Shown here: piece by piece, positions 7,675 to 53,605 of the stretch
Layout of the letters: the number at the start of each line of letters is the position of its first letter
How positions within the stretch are numbered: the first letter of the stretch is position 1
Assembly: GCA_001780775.1 (NCBI GenBank)
Contig: MFIO01000008.1
Span: 1-55,795 of the forward strand
From: Candidatus Giovannonibacteria bacterium RIFCSPLOWO2_12_FULL_43_11c
Lineage (GTDB): Bacteria; Patescibacteriota; Minisyncoccia; JACPKW01; UBA11713
Direction of reading: 5' to 3'
Length of the DNA: 55,795 bases
Made by a program: the position numbers and the translations under genes
The notes under the pieces: model-generated
Database searches by the model: none
Told to the model about the DNA's origin: nothing
The model's input: the letters and a program-made list of their open reading frames with translations, nothing else

Positions 7675-8295
7675 ATGGACAAAGAAGAATCCCTTCTCGG
7701 GCTTAAAAAAGAAATTGAGGAAAATCGCGAACTTCCACTATGCGGCGAGGCGAATTTGGTTTTCGGGGAGGGGAGCGCCGATGCGGAAGTTATGTTTATC
7801 GGAGAGGCGCCGGGTTTTCACGAGGACAAACTCGCGCGTCCTTTTGTCGGGCAGGCGGGAAAGCTTTTGGATAAATTGCTTGTGAAAATAAATTGGCCGC
7901 GCGAATCGGTTTATATAACAAATATCGTCAAGCGCCGCCCTCCAGGGAATCGCGACCCATTGCCGTCGGAGATAGATGCGTATAAGCCTTATCTGGAAAG
8001 ACAGATTAAAATAATCAATCCAAAGATAATTGCGACCTTGGGGAGATACTCCATGAATTATTTCCTGCCCGAGGCAAAAATTTCCCGCGATCACGGCGTA
8101 GCTCAATTTACGAGGGGGGGGTATCTCATTTTACCCTTATACCACCCCGCCGCCGCTCTCCGCGCGACAGCGGTACTCAAAGACCTCGAGATCGATTTCA
8201 AAAAACTCCCCGAGATCCTAAAAAATCCCCCTACCAAAAAGGAAAACTCCACAAAAAAAGAAACAGCTTCCGATACGCAGGAGAGTCTGTTTTGA
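7675..8295 (+). CDS. uracil-DNA glycosylase, family 4
   Basis: GEAPGFHED motif and the C-terminal HPAAALR motif. Confidence 0.85.
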   Translation: MDKEESLLGLKKEIEENRELPLCGEANLVFGEGSADAEVMFIGEAPGFHEDKLARPFVGQAGKLLDKLLVKINWPRESVYITNIVKRRPPGNRDPLPSEIDAYKPYLERQIKIINPKIIATLGRYSMNYFLPEAKISRDHGVAQFTRGGYLILPLYHPAAALRATAVLKDLEIDFKKLPEILKNPPTKKENSTKKETASDTQESLF

Positions 8296-9857: not shown

Positions 9858-11570
9858 ATGAAAAATAAGGAGATAGCGAAGATACTCTTTGAGCTTTCGG
9901 AACTATACGAAATGAAAAACGTGCCATTTAAGCCCCGGGCGCTCGAGCGCGCTTCGGAGACGATTGACTCGCTTACAGAAGATGTCATAGATATATATAA
10001 AGAAGGCGGAATTAAGGCGCTTGAAAATATTCCGGGCGTCGGCAGGGGGATTGCGGAAAGGATAGAAGAATATCTCAAGGCAGGCCGTATCAAAGAATAT
10101 GAAAATATGAAGAAAAAATTCCCGGTTGATATAGCCGGGCTTTCTTCGATTGAAGGGGTTGGACCTAAACTTATCAATCTTTTGTATACAAGATTAAAGA
10201 TAAGAACAGTTTTAGACCTGGAGAAAGCGGCGGAGGCAGGCAAATTGAAGGGGTTACCCAGAATGGGAGCGAAGCTTGAAGCGAAGATCCTAAAAGGCAT
10301 TGAATTTAAGCATGAGGGCGGAGGAAGGTTTGCCTTGGGCGAGGTTTTGCCCATGGCGCGAGAGATTAAGACAAGATTATTAAAAGTTAGGGGCGTTGAG
10401 ACGGTTGAAGTCGCGGGTTCCATCAGGCGGCGGCCTGAGACAATAGGCGACCTTGATTTTCTTGCGATATCGGAACATCCTGCTGCCGCCGCAGAATTTT
10501 TTGCGCGTATGCCAGAAGTTAGCCATGTTTACGGCCACGGGGAAACCAAGGTCCTCGTCAGGTTAAAATCTGGCATAGACGCCGATTTGATTATTTTGCC
10601 TAAAAAATCCTTTGGCGCGGCTCTACAATATTTTACGGGATCTAAAGATCACAACGTCGAGGTGCGGAAGCTTGCGATCAAAAAAGGATGGTCATTAAAC
10701 GAACACGGGCTAACGCGCGGCAAAAAAATGATAGCAAGCGAAACAGAAAAAGAAATTTATGAAAAACTCGGGATGGATTTTATCGAACCCGAGATGCGAA
10801 CGAACCGAGGAGAAATCGAAGCCGCACTCGCGCATAATTTGCCTAAACTCATCGGTTACGGAGATTTAAGAGGGGATTTGCAAGTTCAAACATCTTGGAC
10901 GGATGGCAAAAATTCAATTGAGGAGATGGCGCGGGAGGCTGAAAAATTTGGTCACGAATATATCGCGATAACGGATCATACGAAATTTTTGGCGATGACC
11001 GGTGGATCGGATAAGAAAAAACTTTTGCGCCAGATGGCGGAGATTGATAAGATTCAGAAAAAATTTCGCAAACTTAAAATTTTGAAAGGAGCAGAGGTGA
11101 ATATAATGCGCGATGGATCTCTCGATATTGATGACGAAACTTTAGCGAAGCTAGATGTCGTCGGGGCGGCGGTGCATTCGCTTTTTAATTTATCGCAGGA
11201 AGAGCAAACCGCGCGTATCATTAAAGCGATGGAAAATCCGAACGTTGATATTTTATTTCATCCGACTGGGCGCGTGATTAACAAGCGAAAGCCGTACGAA
11301 GTTGATATGGAAGCGATTATCAAGGCTGCGAAGCGCACTGGGACGATTTTAGAAATCGACGGGCATCCTTGGCGGCTCGATTTAAAAGATGAGCATATTC
11401 GTATGGCGCGCGAGGGCGGAGTGAAAATGGTTATTGATACCGATGCGCATTCTGTTTCCGAGATGAGTTATCTCGAATATGGCATCGCGCAAGCCAGGCG
11501 CGGGTGGTGTGAAAAAAAAGACATAATAAATACGTTGCCGCTTAAAGAATTTTTAAAGGCGTTAAAATAA
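9858..11570 (+). CDS. polX: family X DNA polymerase with C-terminal PHP domain
   Basis: 570 aa. Has HhH motifs (IPGVGRGIAERI, IEGVGPKL), the pol-beta catalytic GSIRRRPETIGDLDFL motif, and a PHP domain (ITDHT...DTDAH). Confidence 0.9.
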   Translation: MKNKEIAKILFELSELYEMKNVPFKPRALERASETIDSLTEDVIDIYKEGGIKALENIPGVGRGIAERIEEYLKAGRIKEYENMKKKFPVDIAGLSSIEGVGPKLINLLYTRLKIRTVLDLEKAAEAGKLKGLPRMGAKLEAKILKGIEFKHEGGGRFALGEVLPMAREIKTRLLKVRGVETVEVAGSIRRRPETIGDLDFLAISEHPAAAAEFFARMPEVSHVYGHGETKVLVRLKSGIDADLIILPKKSFGAALQYFTGSKDHNVEVRKLAIKKGWSLNEHGLTRGKKMIASETEKEIYEKLGMDFIEPEMRTNRGEIEAALAHNLPKLIGYGDLRGDLQVQTSWTDGKNSIEEMAREAEKFGHEYIAITDHTKFLAMTGGSDKKKLLRQMAEIDKIQKKFRKLKILKGAEVNIMRDGSLDIDDETLAKLDVVGAAVHSLFNLSQEEQTARIIKAMENPNVDILFHPTGRVINKRKPYEVDMEAIIKAAKRTGTILEIDGHPWRLDLKDEHIRMAREGGVKMVIDTDAHSVSEMSYLEYGIAQARRGWCEKKDIINTLPLKEFLKALK

Positions 11571-11697: not shown

Positions 11698-12390
11698 ATG
11701 AGCGATAAAGCCTTAATGACGAGAGCAGAATTAGAGTTGACGCAGAAAATGCAGCGGGAATTTCCTGCTGGCGGAGTCGTCCATCCTGATATTATCAAAG
11801 AGGTGAACGACTCTCCGGAGCTTACCGCCCATCTCACCGCTTTTTTGCAAAACCGTGGGCGCATGCAAGTGGGAAGCACCAGCGGCATCGTTGCCCCGCA
11901 AAATGGAATCGTTTTGCCGTTCACTATTCCGGTGAACGAATCGCGCGATTGGAACGATGTGGTAAGGGCAGTTGGTCTGAATACGGATCACAGTAATGAT
12001 ATATGGAAAGTGGGGGATCAATTTGCTCCGACTGCGGGTATGGTGGAGCGGCTCGAGCAAATTTACCTTGTCAACTTTGGCAAGGATAGCATAACGCAGA
12101 GCCTGGACGCCCTTGCGTGGGGCAAGGAACAACATATTATTCCTGTGTCTCCTCGCGCGGACTTTGCCATCGCCGAGCACTTCCCAAAACTCCATACCTA
12201 TCTAGGCATGGACCCCATGGCGATTGTTTCCCTCCAAAGGTGTTCTTTCGAAAGCCACGCTCGTGTCGCTAAGGTCTGGTTCGATGGCTCGAAGCGCGGT
12301 GCGGGTCTCGGTTGGTTCGGGTACGACTGGAACGACGACTTCTGGTTTCCCTTCGTTCGTGAGTTTGAAGCTGGGAATTCTGGATCCTGA
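11698..12390 (+). CDS. DGR target (variable) protein
   Basis: 230 aa with no obvious signal peptide. The C-terminal 50 aa (...SFESHARVAKVWFDGSKRGAGLGWFGYDWNDDFWFPFVRE...) are encoded by the VR. Confidence 0.8.
   Translation: MSDKALMTRAELELTQKMQREFPAGGVVHPDIIKEVNDSPELTAHLTAFLQNRGRMQVGSTSGIVAPQNGIVLPFTIPVNESRDWNDVVRAVGLNTDHSNDIWKVGDQFAPTAGMVERLEQIYLVNFGKDSITQSLDALAWGKEQHIIPVSPRADFAIAEHFPKLHTYLGMDPMAIVSLQRCSFESHARVAKVWFDGSKRGAGLGWFGYDWNDDFWFPFVREFEAGNSGS
12243..12360 (+). repeat. DGR variable region (VR)
   Basis: 118 nt matching TR at a 488-nt offset. There are 14 mismatches, and 13 of them fall where TR has A. Confidence 0.85.
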
Positions 12391-12428
12391 AATCTTTGGG
12401 ATTCTTGAATCCTTGGTTTGCATTTTAA

Positions 12429-12460
12429 CGCCTGCATGGCTTCGGTCATGCGGGCGTTTT
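12429..12460 (+). terminator. GC-rich hairpin with UUCG loop and T4 tail downstream of the DGR target gene
   Basis: CGCCTGCATGGC-TTCG-GTCATGCGGGCG followed by TTTT. Confidence 0.5.
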
Positions 12461-12730
12461 CAATTTTCGAAAATTTGATATAATAACTTTGGATACTAGA
12501 CTAATATGCTGGCGGTTACGGCTTCCAGCGGTCGAATTCTGAGAGCTGATGGGTCAGAATTACTTTGGCTACGCCTGCCGGAGGCAGGCAGGGCTTAGGC
12601 AAGTGTATCTATCAGAAATTCTTCAAAAATGAAGATACTCGGTGCCGAGCACTAAGGGATTTTCGATCCCGGATTAGATACAATCCCGAGAGCACTCGAA
12701 GGACAGTGGCATAGGTGGTGCTTGGTACAT

Positions 12731-12848
12731 TTCTTTCGAAGGCAACGCTCATGTCGCTAAAGTCTGGTTCAATGGCTCGAAGCGCAATGCGAATCTCAAT
12801 TGGTTCGAGAACGACTGGAACGACGACTACTGGTTTCCCTTCGTTCGT
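12731..12848 (+). repeat. DGR template region (TR)
   Basis: Non-coding copy of the VR. It has 27 adenines, many in AAY codons when read in the VR frame. The 3' 19 nt are A-free and identical to the VR. Confidence 0.85.
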
Positions 12849-12856
12849 TATTCTCT

Positions 12857-13219
12857 TCATTCCCTGCCCTTTCTCTGTGGCAGGGTTTCTTTTTCAACAT
12901 TTCTTATCCATCCGCCAAGCATTTTACCGATCTCGTTCAAGGGTTCAGAAAGCGCGATATACTTTTTAGTATCAAGAGCTTTTATTTCCCAAGAAATTTG
13001 CAAGAAGAATTTTAAGAGATCAAGTTTCACAGCAGATTTTTTGAGATAAGGCAGTTTTTCTTCTTTCGATAAATAGCTTGCGATAAATAACAATTCCAAA
13101 GTTTCAATAAATAGCGAATCTATCTTTGCGCCAAGCGTGTATCGTGATTTTTTAGAAATATGATCAAGAATTTCATGCCACAATTTGTAGACCAAAATAA
13201 AACGCCCGATGATGGGCAA
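12857..13219 (-). CDS. avd: Avd-like accessory variability determinant (four-helix-bundle protein)
   Basis: 120 aa. The ...LNEIGKMLGGWIRNV... C-terminal helix resembles Avd and the 23S-rRNA-IVS four-helix-bundle family. The only canonical start in the ORF is the TTG at 13219. Confidence 0.7.
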   Translation of the reverse strand: MPIIGRFILVYKLWHEILDHISKKSRYTLGAKIDSLFIETLELLFIASYLSKEEKLPYLKKSAVKLDLLKFFLQISWEIKALDTKKYIALSEPLNEIGKMLGGWIRNVEKETLPQRKGRE

Positions 13220-14210
13220 AACTTGTCTGGGGGGGGGGCTTAGAGGAAAAATTCAATTCAGTCATAGCTTTGATGAAATTATTTCAGTTGAGAATTTACT
13301 TCTTGCCTGGCAGGAATTCCTGAAAGGAAAAAGAAAGAAAGCCGACGTCCAAGAATTCTCCATGCATCTCATGGATAATATTCTAGCACTTCATCACGAT
13401 TTAAAGGAAAGAAAATATAAACACGGAGGATATCACGCTTTCAATATATCCGATCCCAGGCCGCGAAATATCCACAAAGCAATCGTTCGCGATCGGTTGT
13501 TGCACCATGCAATCTATCGAAAACTCTATCCATTCTTCAACCGCATCTTCGTTGCGGATTCATATTCTTGTCGAATTGGCAAAGGGACGTATAAAGCACT
13601 CAACCGATTTCTGGAATTCGGGCGAAAAGTGAGCAGGAACAATACAAAAACCTGCTGGGTTTTGAAAGGCGATATCAGAAAATTCTTCGCGAATATTGAT
13701 CACGAAGTTTTAATGACAATTTTGAAAAAATATATTTCTGACGAAGATATTATCTGGTTGTTGTACGAAATCATCGAAAGCTTTGTTCCGGGCTTGCCGC
13801 TCGGCAATTTAACCAGCCAATTATTTGTAAATATCCATATGAATGAATTTGATCAGTTTATAAAGCACAAACTCAATGCAAAACATTATATCCGCTATGC
13901 AGATGATTTTGTGATTTTTTCTGAAAATAAAACCTGGCTCGAGGTGTTAATTCCCCAAATTCGAGATTTTCTTTCAGACAAACTTTGCCTCGAGTTGCAT
14001 CCTGACAAGTTGTTCATCAAAACACTTGCTTCCGGAGTTGATTTTCTCGGATGGGTGCATTTCCCGGGTCATCGGGTTTTGCGGACCACCACCAGAAGAC
14101 GTATGATAAAACGTATGTCAGAAAAATCAAAGTCAGAAACCATTAATTCATATTTTGGCCTATTGCGGCACGGGAATACGTTTAAGATTAAAAAAAGAAT
14201 TTTACCGTAA
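13209..14210 (+). CDS. DGR reverse transcriptase
   Basis: 333 aa. Has LPLGNLTSQLFVN (DGR-type motif 4), the YADDFVIF catalytic motif, and N-terminal NLLLAWQEFLKGKRKK. Confidence 0.9.
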   Translation: MMGKTCLGGGLRGKIQFSHSFDEIISVENLLLAWQEFLKGKRKKADVQEFSMHLMDNILALHHDLKERKYKHGGYHAFNISDPRPRNIHKAIVRDRLLHHAIYRKLYPFFNRIFVADSYSCRIGKGTYKALNRFLEFGRKVSRNNTKTCWVLKGDIRKFFANIDHEVLMTILKKYISDEDIIWLLYEIIESFVPGLPLGNLTSQLFVNIHMNEFDQFIKHKLNAKHYIRYADDFVIFSENKTWLEVLIPQIRDFLSDKLCLELHPDKLFIKTLASGVDFLGWVHFPGHRVLRTTTRRRMIKRMSEKSKSETINSYFGLLRHGNTFKIKKRILP

Positions 14211-14211
14211 C

Positions 14212-14640
14212 ATGCCGGTTTTGCGTTCAGCGGGAATCATTCTTTTTAGAGAGACCCAAGGGGGCAGGCGATATTTAATTTTAAGGGCATCGCGCAAGGA
14301 CAATCGTCCGGAATTTTGGGATATTCCAAAGGGAGAGCTGGATAAGGGCGAGTCGGGCATTGAAGGGGCTATGCGTGAAGTGAAAGAAGAAGCAGGTTTG
14401 GAAAATTTTTCATTGATTCCTGATTTTAAGCATACGGTGCAGTATTTTACACGCCGTGCCGGCAAATCCATCATGAAATTTGTCGCGGTTTTCCTCGCAG
14501 AGGCCCAGAATGACAAAGTCAAGCTATCTTGGGAGCATGATGCGTATGAATGGGTAACACTCGAAGAGGCGACAAAAAAATTGACAACTATGCGCGAGAC
14601 TATAAAAAAAGCAGATGAATTTCTCCGAAAAAGTTCTTAA
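14212..14640 (+). CDS. NUDIX hydrolase
   Basis: Nudix box: GELDKGESGIEGAMREVKEEAGL. The start is taken at ATG 14212, just after the RT stop, rather than the track start at 14155. Confidence 0.8.
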   Translation: MPVLRSAGIILFRETQGGRRYLILRASRKDNRPEFWDIPKGELDKGESGIEGAMREVKEEAGLENFSLIPDFKHTVQYFTRRAGKSIMKFVAVFLAEAQNDKVKLSWEHDAYEWVTLEEATKKLTTMRETIKKADEFLRKSS

Positions 14641-20070: not shown

Positions 20071-20088
20071 CCTTCCGATTTCTAATTG

Positions 20089-20400
20089 TGGAGATGGCGG
20101 GAGTTGAACCCGCGTCGGGAAAGCTTTTGAGGGATGGTTGACAAGCTTAAGTGAAATCCTGAATTGACTCTCAGGAAAAAAGTTTTCTCGCTTATGACAC
20201 CCGCGATTCTTTAGCGAGAATCAAGGACGGATGGCCTAGATCCGAAGATCCAAGCGTTGCCATTAAGCTACTGCCAAAGCAGGCTCTCTGGTTCCAAATA
20301 AGTTTGCACTTATTATTTCCCATGGGAGATATTTAGCTCCGCCATGGCGGAGCGCCTGAACATCATCTCAAAGTTCTTCCCCTCGAGGCCTATCATCCCC
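20089..20400 (-). ncRNA. ssrA: tmRNA (SsrA), about 312 nt, CCA not encoded
   Basis: On the minus strand, the 5' GGGGATG pairs with the 3' CATCTCC (G3-U pair), followed by discriminator A. The T-arm is GCGGGTTCAACTCCCGC. Candidate tag ORF: GCA AAC TTA TTT GGA ACC AGA GAG CCT GCT TTG GCA GTA GCT TAA (ANLFGTREPALAVA). It lies directly downstream of smpB. Confidence 0.85.
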
Positions 20401-53521: not shown

Positions 53522-53605
53522 GCCGCGGTGGCGGAATCGGCAGACGCACAGGACTCAAAATCCTGCGGGCGCAAGCTCATGAGGGTTCGACCCCCTCCCG
53601 CGGCA
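53522..53605 (+). tRNA. tRNA-Leu (anticodon CAA), class II with long variable arm, CCA not encoded
   Basis: The acceptor stem is GCCGCGG/CCGCGGC plus discriminator A. The anticodon loop is CTCAAAA. The T-arm is GAGGGTTCGACCCCCTC. The variable arm is a stem-loop. Confidence 0.9.

Follow-up and report, generated by a model that had tools for sequence, protein, structure and literature searches.

The region spanning positions 11698–14210 of the 55.8-kb window (the whole stretch of contig that was analyzed) is almost certainly a chromosomal diversity-generating retroelement (DGR) of the CPR clade. It lies among housekeeping genes in Candidatus Giovannonibacteria (Patescibacteria), and its components are ordered as target gene with variable repeat (VR), structured RNA, template repeat (TR), avd, a simple-sequence repeat, and reverse transcriptase (RT), with avd alone inverted. 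The assignment is based on the VR/TR statistics, the best match of the RT to the Bordetella phage DGR RT (bRT), the Avd models, population differences, homologous loci, and the B3 architecture. As a DGR, the locus is ordinary, with a standard CPR clade and architecture, and it is less unusual than an earlier note on this DNA had implied. What is new comes from comparison with ~80 related loci (the counts given below refer to subsets of these): a large conserved RNA located 5′ of the TR and a simple-sequence repeat beside the RT gene. No mention of the ~235-nt 5′ RNA domain, its promoter, or the avd–RT repeat tract was found in the CPR DGR papers that were consulted; Paul et al. 2017 is reportedly a further source on CPR-clade B3 DGRs. 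These features lead to a linked proposal, offered tentatively and with rather less than an even chance of being right as a whole: namely, that the CPR DGR RNA is circularly permuted, with its priming/stop/protein-binding module 5′ of the TR, its own promoter, and a priming adenosine at 12635–12637, and that the avd–RT repeat acts as a slipped-strand switch of hypermutation in subpopulations.

The VR (12243–12360, plus strand) encodes aa 183–221 of the target protein. The TR (12731–12848, plus strand) lies outside any conserved coding gene in the ORF list, consistent with its earlier description as noncoding, and contains 27 adenines in 118 nt. The two form a single 118-nt direct repeat with 88% identity and 488-nt spacing, and similarity ends abruptly on both sides of each copy. 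A repeat finder and a base-by-base comparison reproduced the coordinates, length, and spacing claimed in the earlier note, as well as its tally of 14 mismatches, 13 of which are at TR adenines (10 A>G, 2 A>T, 1 A>C); the sole exception is TR-G12741 against VR-A12253. Under a hypergeometric model, 13 or more of the 14 mismatches would fall on adenines with a probability of 3.5e-9. Both copies end in the same A-free 19 nt, CTGGTTTCCCTTCGTTCGT, as previously noticed, and no IMH/IMH* difference is visible between them. The hairpin closest to the VR on its downstream side is the intrinsic terminator of the target gene (12427–12458, plus strand; 14 pairs with a UUCG-type loop, then a T-run), 67 nt away; Wu et al. 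(2018, PMC5758913) found a GC-rich inverted repeat closely following the VR in just 34% of DGRs. Read in the VR frame, the TR gives ...NGSKRNANLNWFENDWNDDY..., and the family-variable columns coincide with those AAY codons. The variable positions, placed before mainly in AAY codons, correspond to AAY/AAG codons. Neither a second VR nor a further match to the TR was found in the window.

The RT ORF (13209–14210, plus strand) comprises 333 aa, with conserved sequence beginning at ~13248, and its identity to RTs of many CPR lineages is 59–80%. Its best solved relative is bRT (8ub7; E=2.2e-42, 148.8 bits), whereas other RT classes, of group II intron/retron type, reached E=1.4e-20 and at most 77 bits. 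The alignment with 8ub7 covers 285 residues and pairs LGNLTSQ with IGSLTSQ and YADD with YMDD, confirming the two motifs by which the RT had been recognized, and by PDB scores the protein is closer to bRT than to retron or group II RTs. The avd gene (12857–13219, minus strand; 120 aa, TTG start) is convergent with the TR RNA and divergent from the RT gene. Its product scores 51.3 bits against Pfam PF22296 (bAvd; cut-off 40) and 1.9e-18 against the PHROG family "Avd protein of DGR", and it spans profile positions 1–104 of 104 in NCBIfam NF033474 at 73.7 bits, under the cut-off of 80. Thus, the Avd-like neighbor proposed from the letters is supported by Pfam and PHROG, but its position on the minus strand had been omitted. 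The architecture is B3, TR-(avd)-RT, with avd reversed between the TR and RT in a CPR host; avd is on the reverse strand in every related locus with an avd match, and the same layout and A-biased mismatches recur in 68 of 70 homologous loci. In both Giovannonibacteria lineages, a NUDIX gene begins 1 nt past the end of the RT ORF, and PolX is encoded upstream. These two genes were rejected as DGR accessories, being beside the RT in none of the other 80 CPR loci, and their proximity is read as inherited synteny.

Activity of the element was assessed by comparing the window with four near-identical contigs from other samples over 8.7 kb. Each comparison yielded 9–11 differences, 8 of them in the VR and all of these at TR-adenine positions, while the TR was the same throughout. 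Two VR alleles separated by 8 TR-adenine differences therefore occur in backgrounds with only 1–3 other differences per 8.7 kb. Likewise, the target differs from the homolog P0001 by 7 amino acids, all in the VR at TR adenines. The confinement of VR differences to TR adenines among near-identical contigs indicates an element that is diversifying in nature, and the DGR is apparently active. With adenine-specific VR/TR divergence, a DGR-type RT, an Avd, AAY/AAG variable codons, and VR differences between near-identical contigs, the original reading of the locus as a complete DGR stands.

Two other accounts of the locus were weighed against an active DGR. An ordinary segmental duplication of the target 3′ end, diverged by normal mutation and lying near an unrelated retron or group II intron RT, could draw on the public annotations of relatives, which name a "group II intron" or "retron-type" RT, and on the best NCBIfam model for the RT, which is a group II intron RT/maturase. 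The latter result arises because NCBIfam returned no DGR RT model, and the group II model scores just 130.9 bits, well short of its 300-bit cut-off. The mismatches are concentrated on the adenines of a single copy, bRT is the solved structure closest to the RT, and the layout is shared by nearly all homologous loci. Moreover, Rfam detected no intron RNA or retron msr/msd family, reporting only sub-threshold noise over 12300–13300 (RT-14 with 20.5 bits, where the cut-off is 48.1, and E=3.7). A simple duplication, of negligible probability, is already refuted by the adenine bias and by the population data. The second account, in which the cassette has decayed, the VR/TR pattern is a fossil, and loss of the RT start codon marks inactivation, is somewhat less remote, if still very improbable. 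The canonical ATG of relatives (M-K-I-Q) is GGA here; a start codon occupies this position in 57 of 76 relatives, and ATG, GTG, and TTG are absent from it in the window and in 18 of the other 75 related loci. In addition, the target homologs L011 and L013 have no cassette within 4–5 kb, suggesting that a target can persist after its cassette is gone or exist independently of one. (The idea that L011 is the L103 locus minus its cassette was unsupported: the proteins encoded upstream share no homology, and the match is confined to a 135-nt SpoU segment.) Against decay stand the two VR alleles in near-identical backgrounds, an RT ORF intact over 333 codons with 67–80% identity to thousands of relatives, and the intact TR, avd, promoter, and RNA helices. 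An ATG-initiated RT frame is also present, running through the G10 tract discussed below.

The target gene (11698–12390, plus strand) encodes a 230-aa protein with a helical N-terminal region, a conserved core at approximately aa 60–223, and the VR at its C-terminus. It has no match in Pfam, NCBIfam, or PHROG, in keeping with its initial characterization as a small protein with no recognizable N-terminal domain, and inspection by eye revealed no hydrophobic N-terminal or membrane-type segment. Its family includes 15 close homologs and at least 501 cluster representatives. A first structural model from a 16-sequence alignment (pLDDT 68.9) gave meaningless fold matches and was replaced by an AF2 model from a 144-sequence alignment (pLDDT 89.6). 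The top Foldseek matches of this model (8oks, 1sb2, 1v7p, NKR-P1A, BDCA2, and a poxvirus CLec) are C-type-lectin-like but weak, with best E values of 0.17–0.25, probabilities of 0.60–0.63, and TM of ~0.5. When the target family was run as a sequence profile against the PDB, the best E value was 0.86, and solved DGR variable proteins were not among the structural matches of the target. The predicted domain thus weakly resembles C-type lectins; the top matches hint at the scaffold named in the earlier note, but none of them is significant.

The TR is bracketed by a conserved promoter and a 5′ RNA domain with covariation on one side and by a terminator on the other. The promoter (12457–12484, plus strand) consists of a −35 element TTTTCA, a 16-nt spacer, and an extended −10 element TGATATAAT (12476–12484), and among the promoter matches of the region it scores highest (10 of 12, with TG). 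The pattern TGnTAnnnT is found at the equivalent place in 44 of 55 related loci, at a median of 231 nt from the TR, and terminator-like hairpins precede the promoter in related loci as well. The structured 5′ domain (12491–12730, plus strand; ~235 nt) is marked by nhmmer conservation across >55 loci and by covariation. On the same strand it comprises the bulged hairpins SL1 (12508–12529) and SL2 (~12555–12612), both with UACG loops and the latter with a lineage-specific insert; an A-rich linker with the strand AAUGAAGA (12628–12635); and a 12-bp helix (12642–12653 with 12717–12728) enclosing inner hairpins at 12656–12670 and 12683–12704. In every lineage, 2 nt separate the end of this helix from the TR. 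Covariation of helices, evaluated with shuffle and slide controls, amounted to 96.2% paired versus 74.3% shuffled, and 274 double-change cells versus 75. Downstream, UCUUCAUU (12854–12861, plus strand), complementary to 12628–12635, begins 6 nt past the TR end (5 intervening nt) and is a candidate template strand of a template:primer-like duplex. Compensatory variants of this 8-bp duplex occur in at least 12 lineages, and own partners match over a mean of 7.71 nt versus 6.86 ± 0.14 nt for permuted partners; the duplex is A/U-rich and hence has a high chance background (6.0–6.9 nt), and the sister lineage L006 has an A-C mismatch in it. The terminator of the DGR RNA (12862–12895, plus strand), a hairpin CCCUGCC...GGCAGGG followed by a U-run, overlaps the avd 3′ end on the other strand. 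It is kept as CUCUCCC...GGGAGAG UUUUGUUUU in most related loci, and it is a possible counterpart of the stem-loop that Handa et al. described downstream of the TR.

These elements suggest a working model in which a transcript of ~405 nt (roughly 12491–12895) would be produced from its own extended −10 promoter, and its 5′ domain would fold back so that 12628–12635 pairs with 12854–12861, shortly beyond the 3′ end of the TR. From the Bordetella RNA we infer, by analogy, that this first duplex would position a priming adenosine, either A12635 or the invariant A12637, and that a second duplex, the 12-bp helix next to the 5′ end of the TR, would halt cDNA synthesis at that edge. RT-Avd would then copy the TR, misincorporating at adenines, and the cDNA would replace the VR, rewriting ~13–27 positions in the last three strands of the C-type-lectin-like domain of a small, cytoplasmic-looking protein. 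Expression of the RT, and perhaps of avd, would be set from the short divergent interval carrying the repeat.

In this interval, a G10 tract (13229–13238, plus strand) lies 9 nt away from the start codon of avd and 12 nt upstream of the conserved N-terminus of the RT, and the only ATG-initiated RT reading frame here contains it. A repeat occupies the space between the avd and RT starts in related loci as well, being G8–14 in 66 of 75 and (GA)n or (GT)n in some others. Tract length variants were seen in 4 of the 7 lineages sampled more than once (10/9, 11/10, 9/17/24/30, and (GT)7/(GT)11), and length was constant in three (n=3, 6, and 9). As a comparison, a G8 in the UDG gene had the same length in the three contigs spanning it. 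In 20 of 65 relatives a −10-like TANNNT adjoins the tract; the examples listed have their ATG at +14. Tract and flank lengths showed no negative correlation (rho=−0.16, p=0.25), and compensation that would keep a fixed −35/−10 spacing was dropped as a hypothesis. Tract length probably changes by slippage, and the tract may be a phase-variation switch. No relevant paper emerged when the literature was searched for DGRs together with homopolymers, poly-G, or phase variation.

Both the RNA model and the switch have a competing explanation. The 5′ RNA domain might only stabilize or regulate the TR transcript, as a protein-binding scaffold or ligand sensor, with priming from the 3′ tail or in trans. 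This view, which we consider unlikely though of some weight, gains from the A/U-rich nature and high background of the 8-bp duplex and from the possibility that the hairpin after the TR is an Avd-binding element; furthermore, Handa et al. predicted CPR stem-loops and flanking duplexes from only 40 nt upstream and 100 nt downstream of the TR. It is countered by the constant placement of the 12-bp helix across lineages; by strand order and spacing that match Bordetella Sp47–56, a 2-nt linker, Sp59–70, a short stem-loop, and adenosines; and by a downstream tail of only ~45 nt before the terminator, which leaves little room for a Bordetella-like 140-nt spacer. For the tract, the alternative is closer to an even chance: it may be a fixed element, either non-B DNA coupling divergent promoters via supercoiling or an initially transcribed homopolymer, with length differences reflecting sequencing or assembly errors. 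Gn, (GA)n, and (GT)n are classic non-B-DNA formers, and all three types found at this position fall into that class. The three lineages of constant length, the missing compensation between tract and flanks, and the error-prone nature of long homopolymers (one contig has an N-gap and another a deletion exactly at the tract) agree with a fixed element, as does conservation across very deep divergence, which argues for a first-order function. Variability in 4 of 7 resampled lineages beside the constant UDG-gene G8, and the location of the tract inside the only ATG-initiated RT frame, point instead to a switch. The repeat type changes between lineages at a fixed position, which fits selection for repetitiveness itself.

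As a DGR, the locus adds little, CPR bacteria being known to be rich in exactly such an architecture. It is, nonetheless, a clean and apparently active example with a small, well-modeled target from an uncharacterized family (at least 501 representative clusters), and thus a handy starting point for studying what is varied in CPR cells, and for what reason. The by-products of the comparison, the RNA domain and the repeat, could outweigh the DGR itself. The conserved repeat at the RT/avd control region provides a directly testable hypothesis on DGR regulation, and one stochastic variation mechanism would be controlling another if the tract is a switch. The covariation-supported RNA model points to nucleotides for mutation in an in vitro reconstitution of a CPR DGR, and it tests whether the Bordetella phage priming mechanism is general but modular.

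Among known systems, the closest are CPR-clade B3 DGRs, which the locus resembles in host phylum, chromosomal setting, the arrangement and strands of its parts (target, TR, inverted avd, and RT), and a target without known domains, with no difference that would exclude membership. Wu et al. (2018, PMC5758913) documented the B3 architecture in 90% of CPR DGRs, the unclassified VR classes "UVR1-6" of CPR DGRs (Wu et al. 2018) are grouped with the target as near systems, and DGR clade 2 of Roux et al. 2021 (PMC8144416) is named with the closest systems. The target shares with the C-type-lectin-fold variable proteins (Mtd, TvpA, and archaeal AvpA) a VR at the extreme C-terminus over the last beta strands, variable AAY positions in a conserved W/F frame with the motif end ...WFxFxR, and C-type-lectin-like top structural neighbors. 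Unlike these proteins, it has no sequence match to FGE-sulfatase or DUF1566-type CLec domains, and its structural similarity is below significance.

Contingency loci are exemplified by the poly-G tracts of Neisseria and Campylobacter and the poly-C of Bordetella fim. Such loci (PMC2831843, PMC8355987) resemble the avd–RT interval in having a G/C homopolymer of 8–14 nt between promoter elements or at the ORF 5′ end, other repeat types substituted at the same place, and, to judge from the assemblies, length differences between close genomes. In contrast to contingency loci, the tract shows no length variation in several lineages; it extends across a superphylum-level clade rather than a few species, and it would putatively control a mutagenesis machine rather than a surface antigen.

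The Bordetella phage BPP-1 DGR (mtd-avd-TR-brt; Handa et al. 2018, PMC6182149) has in common with the present element its adenine mutagenesis and RT-Avd pair, and the two RTs align, IGxxxSQ and YxDD motifs included. Unlike in BPP-1, avd is inverted and follows the TR, the RNA carrying the TR is bounded by a promoter and a terminator of its own and would be transcribed separately from avd and the RT, VR and TR show no IMH/IMH* mismatch, and the target is a small protein without an evident secretion signal rather than a phage tail fiber. At the RNA level (PMC6182149; bioRxiv 10.1101/2023.10.23.563531), both systems have duplexes at the TR 3′ end and, over ~11–12 bp, at the TR 5′ end, along with bulged hairpins capped by UNCG and a short hairpin that has adenosines after it. 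The modules of the BPP-1 RNA are in a 140-nt spacer 3′ of the TR, whereas here they are located 5′ of it in the order found in the Bordetella Sp region (primer strand, short linker, stop strand, hairpin, and A-rich stretch), an apparent circular permutation.

The only long direct repeat found by a repeat finder in the window is the variable repeat/template repeat (VR/TR) pair of the diversity-generating retroelement (DGR): 118 nt at 88% identity, with a spacing of 488 nt. VR (12243-12360, plus strand) forms the 3′ end of the target ORF (11698-12390), and TR occupies 12731-12848 on the same strand. Base-by-base comparison gave 14 mismatches, 13 of them at TR adenines (10 A>G, 2 A>T and 1 A>C), the lone exception being TR-G12741 against VR-A12253. 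Given 27 adenines among the 118 nt of TR, at least 13 of 14 mismatches would fall on adenines by chance with p=3.5e-9. The likeness stops sharply at either edge, the final 19 nt are A-free and the same in both copies, and no further TR or VR copy was found within the 55.8-kb window. All repeat coordinates and mismatch counts of the earlier note were thus reproduced. ORFs of 82-84 aa that run across TR (12612-12860, minus strand; 12715-12969, plus strand) appear as gene calls in some public annotations, such as an 82-aa call in the near-identical contig L001; they are spurious by-products of TR copying coding sequence.

The reverse transcriptase (RT; 13209-14210, plus strand, RVT_1 match) has the Bordetella phage DGR RT (bRT, PDB 8ub7) as its best solved relative (E=2.2e-42, 148.8 bits), compared with at most 77 bits for group II intron and retron-type RTs. 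Both RT motifs reported previously align with bRT, LGNLTSQ with IGSLTSQ and YADD with YMDD. The neighboring Avd-like ORF (12857-13219) is confirmed as Avd by Pfam bAvd (51.3 bits, cut-off 40) and by the PHROG family "Avd protein of DGR" (1.9e-18), while NCBIfam DivGenRetAVD is covered over its whole profile at 73.7 bits, slightly under the 80-bit cut-off; its location on the minus strand had been omitted. Together with the adenine-specific divergence and population differences concentrated in VR, these assignments show that the locus had rightly been read as a DGR.

Relatives of the RT number in the thousands, at 67-80% identity, across many CPR lineages. Among 80 comparison loci from species-representative genomes, avd is on the reverse strand directly upstream of RT in all loci with an avd match. 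TR adjoins the avd 3′ end in 68 of 70 loci, with strongly A-biased VR/TR mismatches, and VR likewise lies ~370-830 nt upstream of TR in 68/70, mostly at 440-500 nt. The window locus matches architecture B3, TR-(avd)-RT, which comprised 90% of the CPR set of Wu et al. 2018 (PMC5758913), as well as DGR clade 2, which is restricted to Patescibacteria (Roux et al. 2021, PMC8144416). The locus is therefore nothing unusual for its kind: a complete DGR of a well-described CPR type, with low intrinsic novelty.

The DGR is apparently active. Across 8.7 kb (5.1 kb in the case of L004), only 9-11 positions separate the window from four near-identical contigs of other samples or assemblies; eight of them fall in VR, every one at a TR-adenine position, and TR is unchanged. 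Likewise, P0001, the nearest homologue of the target (97% identical, from Candidatus Giovannonibacteria MAGs of the Rifle aquifer), has all seven of its amino acid differences in VR. The differences across separate assemblies are direct evidence that this DGR diversifies its target in nature. The window also carries ribosomal protein, IF3, RNR, PolX and tmRNA genes, indicating that the DGR is chromosomal; the tmRNA gene (20086-20400, minus strand) and one tRNA gene (53522-53605, plus strand) are its sole Rfam matches at the gathering threshold. Upstream of the target there is a PolX gene (Pol beta-like and PHP; 9858-11570), and the gene that begins 1 nt past the RT stop (14212-14640) encodes a NUDIX hydrolase; Giovannonibacteria contigs L005-L009 show this arrangement too. 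Both genes thus border the DGR in two lineages of Giovannonibacteria, and neither was found beside RT in the 80 other CPR loci; they were therefore rejected as functional partners, the arrangement being probably inherited synteny.

Searches of the target against Pfam, NCBIfam, PHROG and PDB sequences returned no match, and inspection of the sequence by eye revealed neither a hydrophobic N-terminus nor a membrane-type segment. A word-indexed search yielded only 15 close homologues, and a profile search expanded the family to at least 501 cluster representatives at E<=1e-3, with a common core at approximately residues 60-223; Pfam gave no meaningful match in any of 144 members. An AlphaFold2 model built with a deeper alignment reached a pLDDT of 89.6 (>90 for residues 60-222) and places VR in the final three strands. 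Foldseek found no significant match to this model in PDB or BFVD. Its top ranks, all non-significant (probability up to 0.6, target-normalized TM ~0.5), were mostly C-type-lectin-like, including the Bdellovibrio Bd2740 C-terminal domain, snake-venom proteins, NKR-P1A, BDCA2 and poxvirus proteins. On the basis of this predicted structure, we lean towards a C-type-lectin-like scaffold; the weak match is in keeping with the several CPR VR classes left without assignment by Wu et al. 2018 (PMC5758913). Two target homologues, in L011 (5001-5699) and L013 (291-983), are 55-60% identical and have DGR-like variable C-termini; no RT, avd or TR was found within 4-5 kb of either, and a cassette elsewhere might act on them, or they could be relics. 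A third, in L012, has avd directly downstream, at the contig end.

The comparison also adds a repeat that is conserved where RT and avd adjoin. In the window it is a G10 tract (13229-13238, plus strand), separated by 9 nt from the TTG start codon of avd and by 12 nt from the conserved RT N-terminus downstream. G8-G14 tracts occupy the same place on the RT-sense strand in 66 of the 75 related loci whose upstream sequence is long enough, and only three other G/C runs of at least 8 occur across 524 kb of these loci. Three exceptions (L046, L051 and L091) carry (GA)n instead, and one lineage carries (GT)n, with 7 units in L127 and 11 in L126. No literature on DGRs joined to such a tract was found. 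The element could act in phase variation or as a non-B-DNA control element, providing testable hypotheses on DGR regulation.

The most economical reading is that the tract is a slippage-prone control of RT or avd expression. Its length is 10, 10, 10, 10 and 9 in the window lineage and 17, 24 and 30 in the sister lineage (where the tract is once interrupted by an N-gap and once hit by a deletion), 9 in the related sublineage L010, and 11 (four times) or 10 (once) in one Yanofskybacteria lineage; tract length and flank length show no compensation across related loci. The canonical start codon of the conserved RT N-terminus, M-K-I-Q, is present in 57 of 76 loci and absent downstream of the tract in the window and 18 others. 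Within 13209-13253, the window has GGA AAA ATT where the RT start ATG of relatives stands, and its sole ATG-initiated RT frame crosses the tract: G10 leads to ATG 13209, G9 (near-identical contig L003, and P0165) to ATG 13175 and an RT of 344 aa, and G8 or G11 in the window context would leave RT without a start. A G8 run within the uracil-DNA glycosylase ORF (8114-8121 in 7675-8295) is equal in length in the window and L001-L003, the contigs spanning it, unlike the RT tract. Alternatively, the tract might be a fixed non-B-DNA or promoter element whose length differences are assembly errors, a reading to which we give slightly less than even weight. Tract length is constant in three lineages (n=3, 6 and 9). 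In the promoter layout, a −10-like TANNNT begins at the first post-tract base in 20/65 loci, or at offsets 0-4 past the tract in 23/65, compared with 5.0 ± 2.0 at random positions. In the listed examples of loci where TANNNT abuts the tract, the RT ATG is at +14, as in a leaderless mRNA.

The 370-nt VR-TR interval is non-coding but conserved, with the window spacer matching >55 other loci down to E=1e-26 (nhmmer). Its best promoter match, an extended −10 element TGnTAnnnT (TGATATAAT, 12476-12484, plus strand), comes after the target terminator hairpin. Of 55 loci, 44 have this element, and its median distance to TR is 231 nt. Next come two bulged hairpins with UACG caps, each with numerous compensatory changes, and an A-rich linker containing the near-invariant AAAAAUGAAGAUAC. 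A 12-bp helix (12642-12653 with 12717-12728, plus strand) then closes a domain of ~85 nt and stops 2 nt short of TR. For the three TR-nearest helices, 96.2% of cells are paired compared with 74.3% after shuffling, and 274 cells are double changes compared with 75; neither value was reached in any of 500 shuffles, and shifting the partners by 1-3 columns reduced pairing to 36-51%. G-U pairs identify plus as the RNA strand. In the window and sister lineage L006 only, the second UACG hairpin has an extra GC-rich hairpin (GCCUGCC-GGA-GGCAGGC, 12570-12595) inserted in its loop region.

In most loci TR is followed by CUCUUCAUUUC and then by a hairpin and a U-run. AAUGAAGA (12628-12635) and UCUUCAUU (12854-12861, starting 6 nt past TR) are complementary, and compensatory variants of this duplex occur in at least 12 lineages, e.g., AACGAAGA/UCUUCGUU, AAAAUAACA/UGUUAUUUU, AAGAUGAAA/UUUCAUCUU and AGUGAAGAAA/UUUCUUCACU. 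Duplexes averaged 7.71 nt with their own partners versus 6.86 ± 0.14 with permuted ones (maximum 7.33 in 500 permutations). No Rfam family matched the TR RNA region; a full-length, sub-threshold RT-14 match antisense to avd (12988-13128, plus strand; 20.5 bits, cut-off 48.1, E=3.7) is probably noise. These results provide a new, covariation-supported model of a CPR DGR RNA, extending from conserved promoter to terminator (12457-12895), in which the covarying domain 5′ of TR measures ~235 nt.

In Bordetella, the spacer 3′ of TR carries, first, a bulged, UNCG-looped stem to which Avd binds. A primer strand comes next, paired to the 3′ part of TR and with the priming adenosine at its end; a linker of 2 nt separates it from the strand pairing just 5′ of TR ("cPRT Stop"), after which come a short stem-loop and adenosines (Handa et al., PMC6182149 and bioRxiv 10.1101/2023.10.23.563531). 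This order of elements recurs in the window RNA, namely, UACG hairpins, a strand pairing with the TR 3′ flank, a linker (here 6 nt, 12636-12641), a strand pairing with the TR 5′ flank, a hairpin and an A-rich stretch. In contrast to Bordetella, the entire series lies 5′ of TR, and we therefore propose, by analogy, that the CPR DGR RNA may be a circularly permuted Bordetella-type RNA. The candidate priming nucleotide would be A12635 or the invariant A12637, and the model yields testable hypotheses on priming in CPR DGRs. Putative stop duplexes and stem-loops were previously reported for CPR DGRs by Handa et al., whose analysis took in only the 40 nt before TR and the 100 nt after it; the principle is therefore known, and the upstream module is undescribed.
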